Position numbers and translations under genes: made by a program | Shown here: positions 35,277 to 42,476 of the stretch, piece by piece | Layout of the letters: the number at the start of each line of letters is the position of its first letter | Numbering within the stretch: the first letter of the stretch is position 1 | Assembly (NCBI GenBank): GCA_050950165.1 | Contig: JBMNHC010000001.1 | Span: 657,073 to 721,072, forward strand | Length of the DNA stretch: 64,000 bases | Source of the DNA: Candidatus Dojkabacteria bacterium | Lineage (GTDB): Bacteria; Patescibacteriota; Dojkabacteria; SC72 | Reading direction: 5' to 3' | Notes under the pieces: generated by a model | Databases searched by the model: none | What the model saw: the letters and a program-made list of their open reading frames with translations, nothing else | What the model was told of the DNA's origin: nothing

Positions 35277-35717
35277 ATGCCTATGTTCTTTAAAAACCTA
35301 TTCAAAAATTCAATACCTAAGAAAGGAGAAGTAGCAATGAAAAAGAAAGAAATAGTCTCTACTGGTATAGGAGTTGTACTACTCCTTCTATTTCTAGTAA
35401 TTGGTTCTGTTTATCTACAAAAAATATTCGCAGAAAATGGCTATATCAGTAAAGCTAAGGGGATAGAGATAGCTAACAGTATGGGCCAGGTAGGAGAATT
35501 ACCATGGGCAGTGGACGAGTACGACCTCGTTGCTGTACTCTTTTGTGAAAGTCCTGACGACTCTAACCAAGACGGGAAGACCTTTGTGCACAAGAAGAGT
35601 GTTTTCCACGAATCAGGAGGATGGATGACAGGCTGTCAATACATGGCTGCCAAAAATTTGACCATCATCCCTGAGGGAAATATTTGGACAAATCAGACAA
35701 AAATCAAATTTGAATAG
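35277..35717 (+). CDS. Hypothetical membrane-anchored protein.
   Basis: N-terminal TM helix; no recognisable domain. Confidence 0.4.
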   Translation: MPMFFKNLFKNSIPKKGEVAMKKKEIVSTGIGVVLLLLFLVIGSVYLQKIFAENGYISKAKGIEIANSMGQVGELPWAVDEYDLVAVLFCESPDDSNQDGKTFVHKKSVFHESGGWMTGCQYMAAKNLTIIPEGNIWTNQTKIKFE

Positions 35718-35847
35718 GTTTAGAAGAGTCTTCTATCTGCTAGATATTAGCTTTACCAAAGATAGAAGACTCTTTTTCCTCTGTATTAATAGATATACAT
35801 CCATCTGTGATAGAATATTAAGAAGGATAACTTTTTACTATCAATAT

Positions 35848-36777
35848 ATGCCAGATAGAACATATGACATCGCTATTGTAGGTAGTGGACCTGCAGCTTT
35901 CTCTGCAAGTATATATGCAAGTAGGTATAAACTAAGTAATATTGTATTTGGAAAAGTATTGGGTGGAACAATCTCTGAAGCTCACAAAGTCTGTAACTAT
36001 CCTGGTATAGATGAAATCTCTGGATATGACTTAGGTATGAAATTTTTTGAACAAGCTAAAAGATTGGGTGGAGAACATCTTGCAGAGAGTGTTATTGAAG
36101 TTAAGAAAGAAGAAGATCTTTTTAGAATAACTACTGATACATCAAAAGAGTTTGTTGCTAAATCTGTAATACTTGCTACTGGAAGTAATAGGAATAGGCT
36201 TAATCTACCTGATGAAAATCGTTTTTTAGGTAAAGGCCTCTCGTACTGTGCAACCTGTGATGGTATGTTTTTTAAAGATAAGGTTGTTGGAGTTGTTGGA
36301 GGAAGTAGTGCTGCTGTAATGAGTGCTGTTATGCTTGCTGATATAGCTAAGAAGGTATATATCATCTACAGAGGTACAGAGCTTAGAGGAGAGCCTATGT
36401 GGGTAGATCAGGCAATGGAGAGAGAGAATATTAAGATAATATATACTACATTGGTTCTTGGTTTGGAAGGTAAGCAGGTTCTTGAAAGAGTAAAACTTTC
36501 TAAGGTATACAACGGTTCACAATATCTTAGTCTAGATGGACTTTTTGTTGAAATTGGTTCTACTCCTAATCTAGATTTAGCAAATCAATTAGGAATAGAG
36601 TTGGCTGATGAGGGATACATTAAGGTTGCAAGCAATCAGAGTACCTCCTTAGAGGGAGTATGGGCTGCTGGAGATGGTACAGACGGATCTAATAAGTTTA
36701 GACAGGTAATTACTGCTGCATCAGAGGGCTCCATTGCAGCTAATTCAATATTTAAATATCTTAGAAAGAGTAATTAA
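35848..36777 (+). CDS. trxB: Thioredoxin-disulfide reductase.
   Basis: FAD motif DIAIVGSGPAAFSA, redox-active CATCDG, NADPH GGG/GGSSAA motif. The ATG at 35848 gives the canonical N-terminus; the track ORF from a TTG at 35710 is probably an artefactual extension. Confidence 0.85.
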   Translation: MPDRTYDIAIVGSGPAAFSASIYASRYKLSNIVFGKVLGGTISEAHKVCNYPGIDEISGYDLGMKFFEQAKRLGGEHLAESVIEVKKEEDLFRITTDTSKEFVAKSVILATGSNRNRLNLPDENRFLGKGLSYCATCDGMFFKDKVVGVVGGSSAAVMSAVMLADIAKKVYIIYRGTELRGEPMWVDQAMERENIKIIYTTLVLGLEGKQVLERVKLSKVYNGSQYLSLDGLFVEIGSTPNLDLANQLGIELADEGYIKVASNQSTSLEGVWAAGDGTDGSNKFRQVITAASEGSIAANSIFKYLRKSN

Positions 36778-37506: not shown

Positions 37507-37950
37507 ATGAGGTGTCCATACTGTGCATGTACAACTTCTAAAGTTGTAGACAAAAGAGATAATAGTGAGGACTTTTCTACTAGAAGAAGAAGGCAGTGTT
37601 TAAGGTGCGGTAGAAGATATACAACATACGAGAGGATTGAAAGGATAGATGTTGTAGTGATTAAAAGAGATGGTTCTTTAGAAAATTTTGACTGTGAGAA
37701 GTTAAGAAAAGGGATTAAGAAAGCTGTTGATTTGGATAAGATTACTGAGTCGGATATTGAGCTGTTTTGTGAGGAGGTAGAGAGAAAGGTAATGGTTAGT
37801 CCAAATCCACTAACTACAGCAGATATTGGAAATATGGTGTTGGAGTGGTTAAGGACTCAAGATCCACTAGCATATATGAGGTTTGCTAGTGTGTATAAAA
37901 AATTTGAAACTTTAAAAGATTTAAAAGAAGAATTAGAGAAATTAATTTAA
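37507..37950 (+). CDS. nrdR: Transcriptional repressor NrdR.
   Basis: Zinc ribbon CPYC...CLRC plus an ATP-cone. Confidence 0.9.
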   Translation: MRCPYCACTTSKVVDKRDNSEDFSTRRRRQCLRCGRRYTTYERIERIDVVVIKRDGSLENFDCEKLRKGIKKAVDLDKITESDIELFCEEVERKVMVSPNPLTTADIGNMVLEWLRTQDPLAYMRFASVYKKFETLKDLKEELEKLI

Positions 37951-37960
37951 TAATACTGCC

Positions 37961-40900
37961 GTGAAAACTGTTCATTTCAAGGTTAAAAAAAGAGATGGAA
38001 GGTTAGTACCGTTTGAGATAGAAAGAATTGAGACAGGGATATTTAAAGCTGCCGAAAGTGTTGGAGGTGATGATAGAGAGAGAGCAAAAGAGGTAGCAAG
38101 TGAGGTACTTAAGAGATTAACTAAGAAGCATAAGAAAGAGCTTTTCATTACAACTTCTGATATTGCTAAGTGCGTTAAAGAGACTCTAAAGGATATGGGG
38201 CATGGTAAGACTGCTACTGCTTTTGAGTTGTTTGTGGATCTTAACAACAAGGTAAAGAATATTAAATCGTTAATAGATGCTGAATCCTTAATTAAGGGAT
38301 ATATTAGAGAAGAGGATTGGAGAGTTAAAGAGAACAGTAATATGGCATACTCTTGGCAAGGGTTAAATAACCATATCTCTACTTCAGTTCAGGCTAATTA
38401 CTGGCTCTATACCATATATCCTAAGGTTGTTTCTAATGCTCATATAAATGCAGATTTACATATTCATGATTTAGGTATGATTGCAACATATTGCTGTGGA
38501 TGGGATTTACAGGATCTTTTGCTTAGAGGTTTTACAGGGGTACCAGGAAAGATCTCTTCTAGTCCTCCTAAGCACTTCTCTGCTGCATTGGGACAGTGTG
38601 TTAACTACTTGTATACCCTTCAGCATGAAGCAGCAGGGGCACAGGCTTTTTCTAGTTTTGATACTCTACTTGCTCCATTCATACGATATGACAAATTAAG
38701 CTACAAAGAGGTAAAACAGAAGATACAGGAGTTTCTTTTCAATATGAATGTTCCTACTAGGGTAGGATGTCAGACTCCTTTTACTAATATCACCATGGAT
38801 CTAGTACCTCACGGTATGTTAGCTAAAGAAAATGTCATCATTGGTGGTAAGCCACAGAAAGAGAAATATGGAGATTTTCAAAAAGAGATGGATATGCTAA
38901 ACAGAGCGTTTTGTGAGGTGATGATGGAGGGAGATGCACAAGGCAGACTCTTTTCATATCCCATTCCTACATACAATTTAACTAAAGATTTTGATTGGGA
39001 GAGTGATAAATACAAATCTTTGTGGGAGATGACAGCTAAATATGGTATCCCCTACTTCTCTAACTTCATTAATTCCGATATGAATCCTGATGATGCTAGA
39101 TCTATGTGTCCTTTAGCAGGAGATGAGAGGGTGTTAGTTAGGTCATCAAGAGCAAGAGGTTTAGAATTTTCTACTCTCAAAGGGATATATGAAGGAGACT
39201 TAAAAGAGCAAGAGTATGAGATATTTAGTAATGGGGGTTTCGTAAAAGGGAAGTTTGCTAAATTCAAAAACCAGAAGATGATAGAGGTTGTTCTTTTAAA
39301 TAACCATAGTATTAAGATGTCGGTTAATCATTTGAATTTTGTTTTAGAAAACAAGAAATCAGATATTAAAGAATTAACTGGTTCAGAACTTACTAAGGGT
39401 ATGTATCTTCCATATTCACTTAATCAGTATGAAGGGAGAGGTGGAGATGAAGAGTTAGGATATTTTGTAGGAGCGTTTGCAGGTAATGGGTCTTTTAATG
39501 AGGAAAGCTCTGTACTCTTTTCTCTCCCTATTAATCAAAAAAAGAGTGTTGCAGAGAAACTAATTAAGATATCTGAGAGATACTTTGGTGCTAGTTATAC
39601 AATTAAAGAGAACAAGAAGAGTAAACTTCTCATATTGGAAATATTCTCAAGAGCTGCTGTAGGTTTGTGTAAAGATTTTGTAAGTGGCAAAGGAAGAGAG
39701 AGAGTCTACACTTCTAAATTGTATGAGATGTCTAAAGAGTTTAGATTGGCAGTAATTGAAGGTCATTTAGATATAAATGGTGGGAGGAAGAATAGGATAT
39801 ATACGTCTTCATTCAAGATGGTTGAGTCTTTAAATATGTTAACAGCTACTTTAGGTACTTCAACTGCAATATATGAAGAAAGGGGGAAGAAAGGATTAGA
39901 CTTTTCTGTTTTGATATATGGGTTATGCAGAGAGAAGTATGGGGATTTCTGGTTTAAAAAAGATGGTATGTTGTGGATGAAGATTAAAGATATTAAAAAG
40001 ATTCCTAACTCTACTGCTTACTGTTTTGAGGTAAAAAACAATATTCCCATGTTTACAGTTGGTGGGAGTGGTATTCTAACTCACAACTGTAGGCTTAGAT
40101 TGGATAATAGAGAGCTAAGAAAGAGAGGTGGGGGTTTGTTTGGTGCAAATCCACTAACAGGAAGTATTGGGGTTGTAACTATTAACATGCCTAGGATTGG
40201 GTATCTAGCAAAAAATAGAAGGGATCTCTTTAAGAGGATTAATAATTTGATGGATATTGCTAAAAGGAGTTTGATGATTAAACGGTCCGCTATAGAGAAA
40301 TATATGGAGATGGGACTCTATCCATACTCTAAGTTCTACCTTAATAATATTAAAAAGAGATTTGGTGAATATTTTAAGAATCACTTTAATACAATTGGGA
40401 TATTAGGTTTGAATGAGGCGTTAATAAATTTCTTAGGTAAGGATATTACTACTAAGGAAGGAAGAGAGCTTGGCTTAGAGATTATGGACCATATGAGAGA
40501 GAGATTAATGACATATCAGATTGAGACTAATCAGCTATTCAATCTAGAGGCTACTCCAGGAGAGAGTACAACTTATAGATTTGCTAAGGCAGATAAGGCT
40601 AAATATGGAGATAAGATCATTGCGGCTTCTGATTTTGGCAAAAATCACTGTTCTGCTCCATACTACACTAACTCTTCTCAGCTTCCTGTAGGCTTCACAG
40701 ATGATGTATTTGAGGCTTTAGATATGCAGGATGACTTCCAGTGTAAATATACAGGAGGAACGGTTCTACACATCTTCTTAGGTGAGAGAATGCCATCAGC
40801 TAGGAGTGTAAGAAATTTTGTTAGAAAGGTTGCAGAAAACTACAAATTACCCTACTTCTCCATCACACCTACTTTTAGTGTATGTCCCAAACATGGATAT

Positions 40901-40984
40901 ATGTCTGGTGAACATACATATTGTCCTAAGTGTGATGCAGAGTCAGGGTATATTGATGGTATGCAATTTGAAGAAATTAAATAA
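37961..40984 (+). CDS. nrdD: Anaerobic ribonucleoside-triphosphate reductase (class III) catalytic subunit. It contains an in-frame intein and ends after its Zn-ribbon, before the glycyl-radical motif.
   Basis: N-terminal ATP-cone, the NrdD core and a C-terminal CPKH...CPKC zinc ribbon. The intein lies between ...DDARSM and CRLRLDN. Confidence 0.9.
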   Translation: MKTVHFKVKKRDGRLVPFEIERIETGIFKAAESVGGDDRERAKEVASEVLKRLTKKHKKELFITTSDIAKCVKETLKDMGHGKTATAFELFVDLNNKVKNIKSLIDAESLIKGYIREEDWRVKENSNMAYSWQGLNNHISTSVQANYWLYTIYPKVVSNAHINADLHIHDLGMIATYCCGWDLQDLLLRGFTGVPGKISSSPPKHFSAALGQCVNYLYTLQHEAAGAQAFSSFDTLLAPFIRYDKLSYKEVKQKIQEFLFNMNVPTRVGCQTPFTNITMDLVPHGMLAKENVIIGGKPQKEKYGDFQKEMDMLNRAFCEVMMEGDAQGRLFSYPIPTYNLTKDFDWESDKYKSLWEMTAKYGIPYFSNFINSDMNPDDARSMCPLAGDERVLVRSSRARGLEFSTLKGIYEGDLKEQEYEIFSNGGFVKGKFAKFKNQKMIEVVLLNNHSIKMSVNHLNFVLENKKSDIKELTGSELTKGMYLPYSLNQYEGRGGDEELGYFVGAFAGNGSFNEESSVLFSLPINQKKSVAEKLIKISERYFGASYTIKENKKSKLLILEIFSRAAVGLCKDFVSGKGRERVYTSKLYEMSKEFRLAVIEGHLDINGGRKNRIYTSSFKMVESLNMLTATLGTSTAIYEERGKKGLDFSVLIYGLCREKYGDFWFKKDGMLWMKIKDIKKIPNSTAYCFEVKNNIPMFTVGGSGILTHNCRLRLDNRELRKRGGGLFGANPLTGSIGVVTINMPRIGYLAKNRRDLFKRINNLMDIAKRSLMIKRSAIEKYMEMGLYPYSKFYLNNIKKRFGEYFKNHFNTIGILGLNEALINFLGKDITTKEGRELGLEIMDHMRERLMTYQIETNQLFNLEATPGESTTYRFAKADKAKYGDKIIAASDFGKNHCSAPYYTNSSQLPVGFTDDVFEALDMQDDFQCKYTGGTVLHIFLGERMPSARSVRNFVRKVAENYKLPYFSITPTFSVCPKHGYMSGEHTYCPKCDAESGYIDGMQFEEIK
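39107..40087 (+). mobile_element. Intein (327 aa) with a LAGLIDADG homing-endonuclease domain, inserted in nrdD.
   Basis: Block A CPLAGDERVLV, block B SVNHLNF, LAGLIDADG-like LGYFVGAFAGNGS and AVIEGHLDINGG, and terminal blocks F/G AYCFEVKNN...GGSGILTHN followed by the +1 Cys. Confidence 0.8.
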
Positions 40985-41004: not shown

Positions 41005-41142
41005 ATGACAAAGAAACCAAAAGTAGTACAGAGACAAAGGTGCGAGGTTTACTCAAGGGTTGTAGGTTACATTAGACCTGTTACACAGTGGAACCCTGGT
41101 AAACAGTCAGAGTTCTCTGATAGGAAAACATTTATAGCCTAA
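41005..41142 (+). CDS. Stand-alone 45-aa ORF encoding the NrdD glycyl-radical domain (RVVGY motif). It is in a different frame from nrdD and 20 nt downstream of its stop.
   Basis: MTKKPKVVQRQRCEVYSRVVGYIRPVTQWNPGKQSEFSDRKTF contains the class III RNR glycyl-radical signature R-V-x-G-Y and the following WN.GK..EF.DR block. Confidence 0.55.
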   Translation: MTKKPKVVQRQRCEVYSRVVGYIRPVTQWNPGKQSEFSDRKTFIA

Positions 41143-41143
41143 G

Positions 41144-41824
41144 ATGTTAATTGCTGGTTTTCAAAAATCTACACTACTAGACTATCCTGGAAAGGTAGCG
41201 GCTATTCTTTTTACATATGGGTGTAACCTTAGGTGTGAATATTGTCATAATCCTGAATTAGTAATATTGCCTTGTAAAAAAGAAACCATTATTACAGAAG
41301 AAGAGATATTCTCTTTTTTAAAAGAACGAAGGTCTCTTTTAGATGCAGTTGTAATTACAGGTGGAGAACCTACTTTACAAAAAGACTTAATTCCATTTAT
41401 TAAAAAGATTAAAAGTATGGGATATCTTGTTAAACTAGATACCAATGGTACTAACTCAAAGATTGTTAAAAAGATACTAGATTTAGATATTGTAGATTAC
41501 TGGGCAATGGATGTTAAGTACGAAAAAGAGATGTACAAACAGAATCTATACAAAGAGATTCAAAAGAGTATTAAAATGATAATGGAGAGAGCAAAAGACT
41601 ATGAATTTAGAACAACATATGTAAAAGGAATACATACAAAAGAATCAGCAGAGAGTATAGGGGGTTTAATTAAGGGAGCAAAAAGATACTATATCCAAAA
41701 CTTTAGACCAGGAAAAACCATCAACTCTACTTTAAATATGACCAACTCCTTCTCTCCCAAAGAGCTAAAGGAGATAAAAAGGATAGTTTCTAAATATGTA
41801 AAAAATACAGAGATCCGAGAATAG
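41144..41824 (+). CDS. nrdG: Anaerobic ribonucleotide reductase activating protein (radical SAM).
   Basis: CNLRCEYCHN radical-SAM cluster motif. Starts 1 nt after the glycyl-radical mini-ORF. Confidence 0.85.
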   Translation: MLIAGFQKSTLLDYPGKVAAILFTYGCNLRCEYCHNPELVILPCKKETIITEEEIFSFLKERRSLLDAVVITGGEPTLQKDLIPFIKKIKSMGYLVKLDTNGTNSKIVKKILDLDIVDYWAMDVKYEKEMYKQNLYKEIQKSIKMIMERAKDYEFRTTYVKGIHTKESAESIGGLIKGAKRYYIQNFRPGKTINSTLNMTNSFSPKELKEIKRIVSKYVKNTEIRE

Positions 41825-41825
41825 C

Positions 41826-42476
41826 CTAATTAGGATTATCCAATACCATAACGACCTTCCCATTAATTAAAGAATCACTATTCACATCTAAATATATCGG
41901 CTTATGAACAGGATTACTAGACTTCGGGTAAAGAATAGTCATATTCTTTTCTCTCTTAATATTTTTAACAGTTGCACAACCATCTATAATAGCTAATACA
42001 ACGTCCCCATCCTCAATCTCAGCATCCTTTTGAATAATGACATACTGCCCATCTTCAATATTTTTTCCATTAACCTCTCTCATATTCATAGAATCCCCTT
42101 TAACTATTAAAGAGAAAAGATTACCCCGATTCTTTACAAGAGACTTCTCCAACTGTAGTATACCTATATTCTCCTCCTCTGCTAAAACCAGAGGATCCCC
42201 ACCATTAGCATATCCTAAAATAGGTATACCAACTAAATATTCATACAACAAATCCTCCTCAGTCTCATTAACTATATGTATACCCCTCGGTTCACTAGTT
42301 CTAATGATAAAACCCTTCCTCTCCAATGCCTCCAAATGACTTACTACTCCTCTCTTAGTAGATATATGCAACATCCTCTGTAGTTCAGTAAGAGAAGGTG
42401 CACTTCCGTTCTCTAAGTAAAAATCTCTGATTACTCTTAGAACTTTACTCTGTTTCTTTGTAAGATTTATATCCAT
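41826..42476 (-). CDS. lexA: LexA repressor.
   Basis: N-terminal winged HTH (LTELQRMLHISTKRGVVSHLEALERKGFI) and a C-terminal S24 peptidase with Ser (VKGDSMN) and Lys. Confidence 0.85.
   Translation of the reverse strand: MDINLTKKQSKVLRVIRDFYLENGSAPSLTELQRMLHISTKRGVVSHLEALERKGFIIRTSEPRGIHIVNETEEDLLYEYLVGIPILGYANGGDPLVLAEEENIGILQLEKSLVKNRGNLFSLIVKGDSMNMREVNGKNIEDGQYVIIQKDAEIEDGDVVLAIIDGCATVKNIKREKNMTILYPKSSNPVHKPIYLDVNSDSLINGKVVMVLDNPN

Follow-up and report, generated by a model that had tools for sequence, protein, structure and literature searches.

A putative class-3-like intein with a degenerate homing endonuclease between the two cysteines of the NrdD radical loop in a Dojkabacteria genome

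INTRODUCTION

Class 3 inteins are recognized by their Trp-Cys-Thr triplet, generally carry Ser or Thr at position +1 and are found for the most part in helicase-like genes. Conversion of a class 1 intein into class 3 has reportedly been tried without success, and a separate origin of the class was suggested on that ground. Here we describe an intein of a related but distinct type in nrdD, the gene of the catalytic subunit of the anaerobic (class III) ribonucleotide reductase (RNR), in a 64,000-nucleotide stretch of DNA from a Candidatus Dojkabacteria bacterium (assembly GCA_050950165.1, contig JBMNHC010000001.1, positions 657,073 to 721,072 of the forward strand). This stretch is referred to as the window, and all coordinates are given in its own numbering.

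Class 3 was defined by a non-nucleophilic residue 1 that co-varies with Trp in block B (B:12), Cys in block F (F:4) and Thr in block G (G:5) (PMC2807308). Its prototype, the DnaB intein of mycobacteriophage Bethlehem (MP-Be), starts with Pro1, absolutely requires Cys F:4 and can dispense with B:7 (PMC2807308). The class has been described as monophyletic, phage-born and located in helicase genes (PMC4031507). A later survey used as its working definition the lack of an N-terminal Cys together with Cys F:4, counted 6.1% non-Trp exceptions, and listed three 'NCT' triplets among 1702 class 3 inteins without comment (PMC7891396). Inteins are nothing unusual in RNR genes, and a putative intein in the NrdD of Clostridium phage c-st / D-1873, a Cys1 intein at the site considered here, has already been noted (PMC3653736).

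RESULTS

The nrdD precursor open reading frame (ORF; 37961..40984, + strand) encodes 1007 amino acids (aa), arranged as an ATP-cone, a class III RNR barrel broken by the intein, and a Zn ribbon. The intein proper occupies 39110..40087 (+; 978 nt, 326 aa, Pro1 to Asn326). It is preceded by an N-extein at 37961..39109 (+), whose last codon, TGT at 39107-39109, supplies Cys(-1), the earlier of the two cysteines in the MCCR finger-loop motif, and is followed by a C-extein at 40088..40984 (+), whose first codon, TGT at 40088-40090, encodes Cys+1, the Cys that precedes Arg. Analysis of intein-free alleles fixed these boundaries. In a syntenic intein-free allele (locus L043, protein P0012), where the gene order is trxB-like, cytidylyltransferase-like, nrdR, nrdD, a 45-aa ORF, nrdG and lexA, the DNA at the site reads TCT ATG TGT TGT AGG TTA; the window reads TCT ATG TGT CCT TTA ... 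CAC AAC TGT AGG CTT and has exactly 978 nt extra, between two TGT codons. The joined exteins were also searched for NrdD relatives, with counts covering the best 120 matches. The insert is absent from 104 of these, all of which read S-M-C-C-R-L-R over the site, and such intein-free NrdDs are up to 88% identical to the window exteins. It is carried by 15 others, which without exception read ...S-M-C/P-L-x-G... (a slash within a motif marks the splice junction).

Three independent observations agree on Pro as intein position 1: (i) in the NCBIfam model TIGR01445 (intein_Nterm), the Leu that is the third residue of CPLAG falls on model position 2, so that Pro is position 1; (ii) PLAGDE can be laid over the common block A consensus, C-[LIV]-x-G-D-[ST], when Pro is counted as position 1; and (iii) inteins of this site that are less closely related have ...S-C/C-F-D-G..., with Cys in the Pro column and the host Cys still before it. 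Only excision from Pro to Asn (39110-40087) gives an intein with the required terminal Asn and at the same time leaves M-C-C-R in the host; excision from Cys to Asn (327 aa) would leave M-C-R, one Cys below all 104 intein-free relatives. The insertion site is SMC/CRLRLD, between both cysteines of the MCCR radical loop. The motif 328-SCCR-331 of Thermotoga maritima NrdD has been aligned with 288-MGCR-291 of T4 NrdD, in which Cys290 is the radical cysteine (PMC4493059). The intein's Cys+1 aligns with T4 Cys290 and with the second Cys of the T. maritima motif and is, by this correspondence (PMC4493059), the catalytic thiyl-radical cysteine. Met keeps its place at -2 relative to the radical Cys only when M-C-C-R is restored.

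An earlier, sequence-only reading of this DNA had recognized an in-frame intein in the catalytic core of NrdD, and this part of it stood. The strings it quoted for 39107-40087, CPLAGDERVLV...ILTHN followed by CRLRLD, with the motifs LGYFVGAFAGNGS and AVIEGHLDINGG, are found on translation. The Cys that it placed at +1 is encoded by the TGT at 40088-40090. Intein-free alleles, for which it had suggested a look in related bins, exist in close relatives and include the syntenic one; in the comparison of extein-only sequence with intein-free NrdDs that it had also proposed, the stretch is missing from every one of the 104 close intein-free homologues, which leaves no place for a conserved host domain. 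Its delimitation of the element had to be revised: the length is 326 codons rather than 327 when measured against the syntenic allele, the Cys with which it began the intein is host residue -1, and the site it gave, SM/CRLRLD, is SMC/CRLRLD in intein-free alleles.

The residues that bear on the splicing class were scored as diagnostic columns in 132 family members with sufficiently complete splice regions. In the window copy, block A (PLAGDERVLVRSS; 39110..39148, +) has Pro at A:1 and thus no N-terminal nucleophile. Block B (NNHSIKMSVNHLNFVL; 39299..39346, +) supplies Ser71 (B:7), His74 (B:10) and Asn76 (B:12, the position of Trp in class 3), and block F (STAYCFEVKNNIPMF; 40010..40054, +) contains Cys305 (F:4, codon 40022-40024), the proposed first nucleophile. 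Block G (GSGILTHN; 40064..40087, +) ends in Thr324 (G:5), His325 (G:6) and Asn326 (G:7), a THN triplet that is near-invariant in the family. Every one of the 66 Pro1 inteins has Cys F:4, Thr-His-Asn at G:5-7 and Cys at -1, and all 65 that cover the column have Cys+1. The block B His is invariant in the family, while B:12 is Asn in 44 of the Pro1 inteins, Gln in 22 and Trp in none. The 65 Cys1 inteins have Cys (57), Asp (7) or Ser (1) at F:4. Thr or Ser at B:7, a requirement of class 1 inteins, is kept in 64 of these 65 versus 42 of the 66 Pro1 inteins, the other 24 having Gly, Asp, Ala or Leu. At the level of genomic and viral loci, the Cys(-1)/Pro1 junction is present in 39 of 39, and the pattern H.N...C...THN/CR in all 38 that span the whole intein (L036 is incomplete).

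Set against the described classes, these residues give a mixed signature. General intein features are present in the form of His74, His325-Asn326, Cys+1 and a Hint fold, and the insert matches PF14890 with 32.8 bits, under the gathering cut-off of 35.8. Class 1 requires Cys, Ser or Thr as residue 1, and here residue 1 is Pro. The class 2 (KlbA-type) signature of Ala1, Asp F:4 and Ser G:6 is replaced by Pro1, Cys F:4 and His G:6. Four class 3 features are found, namely a non-nucleophilic residue 1 (Pro1), Cys F:4 (Cys305), Thr G:5 (Thr324) and a relaxed B:7; two others are missing, with Asn76 in place of Trp B:12 and Cys+1 in place of Ser/Thr+1, both of which have published exceptions. A Hint-only profile of the family scored best with class 1 mini-inteins (TFIIB at 7e-10, CDC21-1, RadA and gp41-1), then reached the class 2 KlbA intein at 0.003 and the class 3 DnaB intein 6bs8 at E = 1.6; by this profile, the family is not specifically close to canonical class 3 inteins. 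From the residue pattern we infer a class-3-like intein, which would work as class 3 on four counts, without Trp B:12 and with Cys+1.

The described inteins nearest to it differ in which of these features they share. Like the MP-Be DnaB intein, the NrdD intein has Pro1, Cys F:4, Thr G:5, a His-Asn end, a relaxed B:7 and a similar size (MP-Be, 341 aa); unlike it, it has Asn at B:12 and Cys+1, where MP-Be has Trp and Thr+1, and it interrupts an RNR radical loop rather than a helicase P-loop. The Burkholderia vietnamiensis (Bvi) IcmO intein likewise combines the lack of an N-terminal nucleophile with Cys F:4 and Cys+1 (PMC5222942), so both branched intermediates would be thioesters in either intein, although IcmO is a mini-intein with the full Trp-Cys-Thr triplet in another host protein. 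The AceL NrdHF split intein (PMC7891396, PDB 6ZGQ) shares a non-Trp B:12, which is Met there, and its class 3 mechanism has been shown experimentally; it differs in being naturally split, in having no endonuclease, and in its host gene (named NrdHF by the authors) and site. The c-st / D-1873 intein occupies the same site (C/C-R-L), is homologous over its full length at 27% identity, and has Cys F:4, a THN end and a LAGLIDADG endonuclease with an Asp/Asp (D/D) pair. It differs in its Cys1 start (ASC/CFDG...), with which a standard class 1 first step is possible. TliVMA / PhoVMA, PI-PfuI, PI-SceI and PI-PkoII resemble the NrdD intein in having a Hint domain split by a LAGLIDADG endonuclease; unlike it, they have Cys1, Asp F:4 and active endonucleases, and identity to them is 11-18%.

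Full-length homologues of the insert were found down to E = 1e-117, every one of them within NrdD; with the 104 of 104 close intein-free NrdDs, this puts the insertion well outside what chance would give. Locus scans were run with a closer five-sequence alignment (A5), as a diverse alignment (A2) had no sufficiently conserved stretch. They gave same-site relatives of 46-68% identity in 37 species-representative genomes and two viral contigs (39 loci). The bacterial genomes are labelled Dojkabacteria, Saccharibacteria, Falkowbacteria, Paceibacterota, Magasanikbacteria, Anaerolineae, Gammaproteobacteria and Lishizhenia, and the archaeal ones Woesearchaeota, Nanoarchaeota, Micrarchaeota, Iainarchaeota, Methanomicrobia and Thermoplasmatota. 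The two viral contigs with a same-site Pro1 NrdD intein are L039 (IMGVR_UViG_3300033747_000022), which at 203 kb is of huge-phage size, and L038 (19.7 kb); phages are plausible vectors for the cross-domain spread of this intein. A distribution that is patchy, cross-domain and confined to a single site is the pattern of a homing intein and excludes a host domain. In a neighbour-joining tree of 161 family members, calculated with the three diagnostic columns masked, the Pro1 groups lie among the Cys1 groups. Its deep branches (0.002-0.04) are too short to trust, and neither the number of Pro1 origins, one or several, nor the direction of change is read from it.

Several further features of the family were observed. 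The Pro1 inteins lie mostly in ...S-M-C/C-R... NrdD hosts (55/66) and the Cys1 inteins mostly in ...S-S-C/C-R... hosts (47/65); intein subtype follows host NrdD subtype. Many NrdD homologues (P0131, P0138, P0139, P0144, P0145, P0160, P0168 and P0184) contain two to four inteins. The further sites lie after VGFQ/RWGQ (the slash here is no junction mark) and after the YC of an HDL...YC motif, and some of the inteins have HNH-like or other endonuclease inserts; the NrdD of uncultured anaerobes appears to be an intein hot spot. A free-standing ORF (P0141, 335 aa) is homologous to the entire intein, with Leu1, Thr F:4 and a D/D LAGLIDADG pair; it ends in ...GILTLI, without His-Asn, and could be a stand-alone endonuclease of intein origin or a decayed fragment.

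A structural model supports the assignment to the inteins. The AlphaFold2 model of the intein was built on an 81-sequence alignment, an earlier run on 20 sequences (predicted local distance difference test score, pLDDT, of 61) having been discarded. With a mean pLDDT of 91.4, it has a Hint beta-fold into which a domain is inserted whose two long helices (intein residues 114-126 and 209-223) are those of an alpha-beta-beta-alpha-beta-beta-alpha LAGLIDADG fold. Foldseek matched the whole model to TliVMA (template-modelling score, TM, 0.77), PhoVMA, PI-PfuI, PI-SceI and PI-PkoII (range TM 0.63-0.77), and the inner domain to I-DmoI, I-Tsp061I, I-SceI and WhiA. The full family profile likewise found PI-PkoII, PI-PfuI, PI-SceI and VMA inteins as the nearest solved relatives; family profiles were needed here, since a search of PDB sequences with the single intein sequence returned only noise. 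PF14527 and PF14528 gave weak matches in the endonuclease region.

The endonuclease domain (39404..39925, +, approximately intein residues 99-272) is degenerate in the window copy. The two LAGLIDADG-like motifs of the sequence-only reading are real, as are its blocks A, B, F and G; each of the two motifs carries Asn in place of the catalytic Asp. In motif 1 (LGYFVGAFAGNGS; 39455..39493, +), Asn126 (codon 39485-39487) gives GAFAGNGS, where relatives have GAxAGDGS, with Asp in 98% of close relatives and 38 of 39 loci. In motif 2 (FRLAVIEGHLDINGG; 39740..39784, +), Asn223 (codon 39776-39778) gives GHLDINGG, where relatives have GHYATDGGN, with Asp in 100% of close relatives and 39 of 39 loci. The acidic residue that closes each LAGLIDADG helix is thus missing from both. 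The window's N/N pair contrasts with a D/D pair in 127 database relatives; 38 of the 39 loci also have D/D, and the viral L038 has N/D. Profile alignment lines up the D/D columns of the family with the acidic GDG/AEG motifs of PI-PfuI, whose acidic residues we take to be D149 and E250. A further comparison took 56 relatives with 50% identity or more and the positions on which at least 90% of them agree. The window copy is changed at 15 of 81 such positions in the endonuclease domain versus 4 of 61 in the Hint domain (Fisher p = 0.047). The endonuclease changes include an invariant Arg lost within a 4-aa deletion; the four Hint changes are all conservative (K/R, I/V, I/L and T/S), and the splicing residues are intact. 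Exchange of this Asp for Asn is the standard inactivating change, as in I-CreI D20N, I-MsoI D22N and I-SceI D44N (PMC2655683, PMC3258161).

The suggestion that the endonuclease might still be active found no support in this inspection of its Asp/Glu positions, where the window copy has Asn126 and Asn223 and nearly all relatives have Asp at both. Judged by these residues, the endonuclease of the window copy appears dead, its cleavage activity lost. The best match of the intein elsewhere is 68% identical, and its exteins are 86-88% identical to their neighbours; its G+C content (0.34) equals that of the window. Taken together, the N/N pair, the clustering of changes in the endonuclease, the matching G+C and the 68% best match point to a long-resident, fixed copy in which homing has decayed and splicing is under selection. 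A fixed intein with a decayed homing function is the late stage of the homing cycle in the established model.

The host gene and its neighbourhood are those of a class III RNR, an essential enzyme of DNA-precursor synthesis. The nrdD ORF matched PF13597 (E = 7e-175) and NF006126 (984 bits), both above cut-off, and PF03477 (ATP-cone) at its N-terminus; the NRDD / PRK08270 profile matched it as two pieces that flank about 326 unmatched residues. Its nearest named NrdD relatives are Candidatus Dojkabacteria / candidate division WS6, within the Candidate Phyla Radiation (CPR), and 7.3 kb of the window including nrdD is 100% identical to Logan contig SRR31061296_11124 (run SRR31061296). Directly 5' of nrdD lies nrdR (37507..37950, +), encoding the repressor with a Zn ribbon and an ATP-cone (PF22811 and PF03477 on the identical contig), and on its 3' side the operon partner nrdG (41144..41824, +), encoding the radical S-adenosylmethionine activase (PF04055 and PF13353 on the same contig). 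The main nrdD ORF ends at 40984, right after the CPKC of the Zn ribbon, and does not contain the glycyl-radical motif. A small ORF (41005..41142, +; 45 aa) completes NrdD: beginning MTKKPKVVQRQRCEVYSRVVGYIRPVTQWNPGKQSEFSDRKTF, it is the source of the fourth Zn-ribbon Cys and of the RVVGY glycyl-radical loop (CEVYSRVVGYIRP...) of this split NrdD. The syntenic intein-free allele is split too, its small gene being called with a PF13597 match, and so are most related CPR and DPANN loci, with varying reading frames; NrdD is continuous in L022, L026, L027 and L038. The host features of a class III RNR are all found (an NRDD barrel, a finger-loop radical Cys, a Zn ribbon, a glycyl-radical loop in a separate ORF, and adjacent nrdG), and the operon of nrdR, nrdD, the glycyl-radical ORF and nrdG is intact.

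Two other genes flank this region. A LexA-like repressor gene (41826-42476, -; LexA_DNA_bind and Peptidase_S24) converges on the 3' end of nrdG, an order kept in the intein-free relative. The thioredoxin-reductase-like gene at 35710-36777 (+) is listed as an ORF that begins at a TTG far upstream, an artefact of the listing; on the identical contig the gene is called with 309 aa, and the start is probably near MPDRTYDIAIVGSG. Searches of the 64-kb window for rRNA and for further copies of the nrdD intein family found none.

DISCUSSION

The explanation that we consider the most probable, with confidence somewhat above an even chance, is that of a 326-residue bifunctional intein in the MCCR loop that splices by the class 3 route and is now an immobilized, splicing-competent relic of the late homing cycle. 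Because it starts with Pro1, the N-S acyl shift of class 1 is not available to it. Instead, Cys305 (F:4) would attack the Cys(-1)-Pro1 bond, helped by His74 (B:10) and Thr324 (G:5), to give a thioester-branched intermediate. The N-extein would then be handed to Cys+1, the future radical cysteine, before cyclization of Asn326 frees the intein and an S-N shift restores ...S-M-C-C-R-L-R.... NrdD works only after splicing, since the intein splits its catalytic loop, and this dependence keeps the splicing residues under selection. The mobilizing endonuclease would meanwhile have lost both catalytic aspartates (D126N and D223N) and several family-invariant residues, leaving a fixed, immobile intein that still splices. 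The data show the boundaries, the residue pattern, the fold, the spread of the family and the decay of the endonuclease, from which the order of the chemical steps and the loss of cleavage are deduced.

Several points weigh against this explanation. Trp-to-Asn and Trp-to-Gln mutants of the MP-Be DnaB intein spliced only at 15°C (PMC2807308). Cys+1 is atypical for class 3, and a direct attack of the class 2 type is also possible. Cys F:4 is the majority state in the Cys1 relatives too, and the link of Pro1 with Cys F:4 (66/66) is weakened by shared ancestry, Pro1 being found in only about three clades. We do not count this co-variation as strong statistics. As for the endonuclease, Asn can still bind metal weakly, and residual nicking is possible.

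The main rival to the class 3 route accepts the same Pro1 to Asn326 intein but lets Cys+1 attack the Cys(-1)-Pro1 amide directly, as in class 2, with Cys305 assisting or merely structural. The invariance of Cys+1, which is the nucleophile that KlbA inteins use (PMC4031507), and the absence of the class 3 Trp B:12 speak for it, and Cys F:4, being common in Cys1 relatives, could be mere inheritance. We nevertheless regard it as unlikely: the Ala1 / Asp F:4 / Ser G:6 signature is absent, Cys F:4 is constant in about 100 Pro1 sequences though variable in the Cys1 relatives, and in Bvi IcmO Cys+1 cannot take over the role of Cys F:4 (PMC5222942). A canonical class 1 intein, with 327 aa counted from the Cys at 39107 and inserted at SM/CRLRLD, with an N-S acyl shift at Cys1 and possibly an active endonuclease, is what automated annotation would choose, given a Cys right before PLAG and a His-Asn end followed by Cys, the commonest intein pattern. 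Its product, SM-CRLRL, would lack one residue of an MCCR motif that is invariant in 104 of 104 relatives and would shift Met from -2 to -1 relative to the radical Cys. The insert, moreover, is 326 codons and not 327, Pro is position 1 by the register of block A and by comparison with Cys1 homologues, and both catalytic Asp of the endonuclease are Asn, all of which makes class 1 quite improbable.

Decay might also have gone further than the endonuclease, so that the intein no longer splices, nrdD is disrupted and the insert is a decaying remnant. The state of the endonuclease domain, with 15 conserved positions changed and the 4-aa deletion, fits such a course, but the reading frame is free of stops and frameshifts, no splice-site or catalytic Hint residue has been lost, and the 4 of 61 Hint changes are conservative. 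With exteins 88% identical to intein-free alleles and with nrdR, the glycyl-radical ORF and nrdG intact, we consider a non-splicing intein very improbable. Nothing but its in-frame position would favor the insert as a lineage-specific host domain of NrdD rather than a mobile element. That idea, to which we give almost no credence, is already refuted by the intein-free alleles: neither the 104 close homologues nor the syntenic allele contain the stretch, which is patchily present at the same site in distant phyla, archaea and viral contigs and has an intein and LAGLIDADG fold.

In the searchable literature we found no description of the form with Pro1, (Asn or Gln)-Cys-Thr and Cys+1, and 'NrdD intein' as a phrase had no match; NrdD is not mentioned in Novikova 2016. 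The WS6 NrdD intein protein KUK77604, public since 2016, is absent from the class 3 accession list (1701 inteins) of PMC7891396, for which one possible reason is that a host Cys at -1 mimics class 1. The Pro1 N-C-T variant may already have been glimpsed among the three listed 'NCT' inteins (PMC7891396). Pro1 inteins of this family, with Cys supplied by the host at -1, would routinely be mis-delimited as class 1. The annotation lesson of this locus is that next to a host Cys at -1 the boundaries and the class of an intein can be called wrongly, by one residue.

Three states are found at the one NrdD site: Cys1 with Asp F:4 (class 1), Cys1 with Cys F:4, and Pro1 with Cys F:4 but without Trp. The second is possibly a dual or intermediate state. 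The third has spread through CPR bacteria, DPANN and other archaea, other bacteria and large phages. In contrast to the class 3 picture of a helicase-borne clade, it makes up a large, cross-domain family at the radical Cys of the anaerobic RNR, with Pro1, Cys F:4, Thr G:5 and Cys+1 and no Trp. We tentatively raise the possibility, to which we give somewhat less than an even chance, that the NrdD-site family records an origin of block-F-Cys (class 3) splicing independent of the phage/helicase class 3 clade. Should the mechanism be confirmed, these inteins would offer a natural series for the study of how splicing mechanisms switch, as well as further sites (Cys-Cys) at which engineered inteins could be placed. 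Redox gating of splicing is also possible, as the cysteines at -1, F:4 and +1 cluster at the splice site of an oxygen-sensitive enzyme. For the host genome, the finding would mean that the intein is fixed and its homing lost, while the supply of deoxynucleoside triphosphates through NrdD depends on continued splicing.

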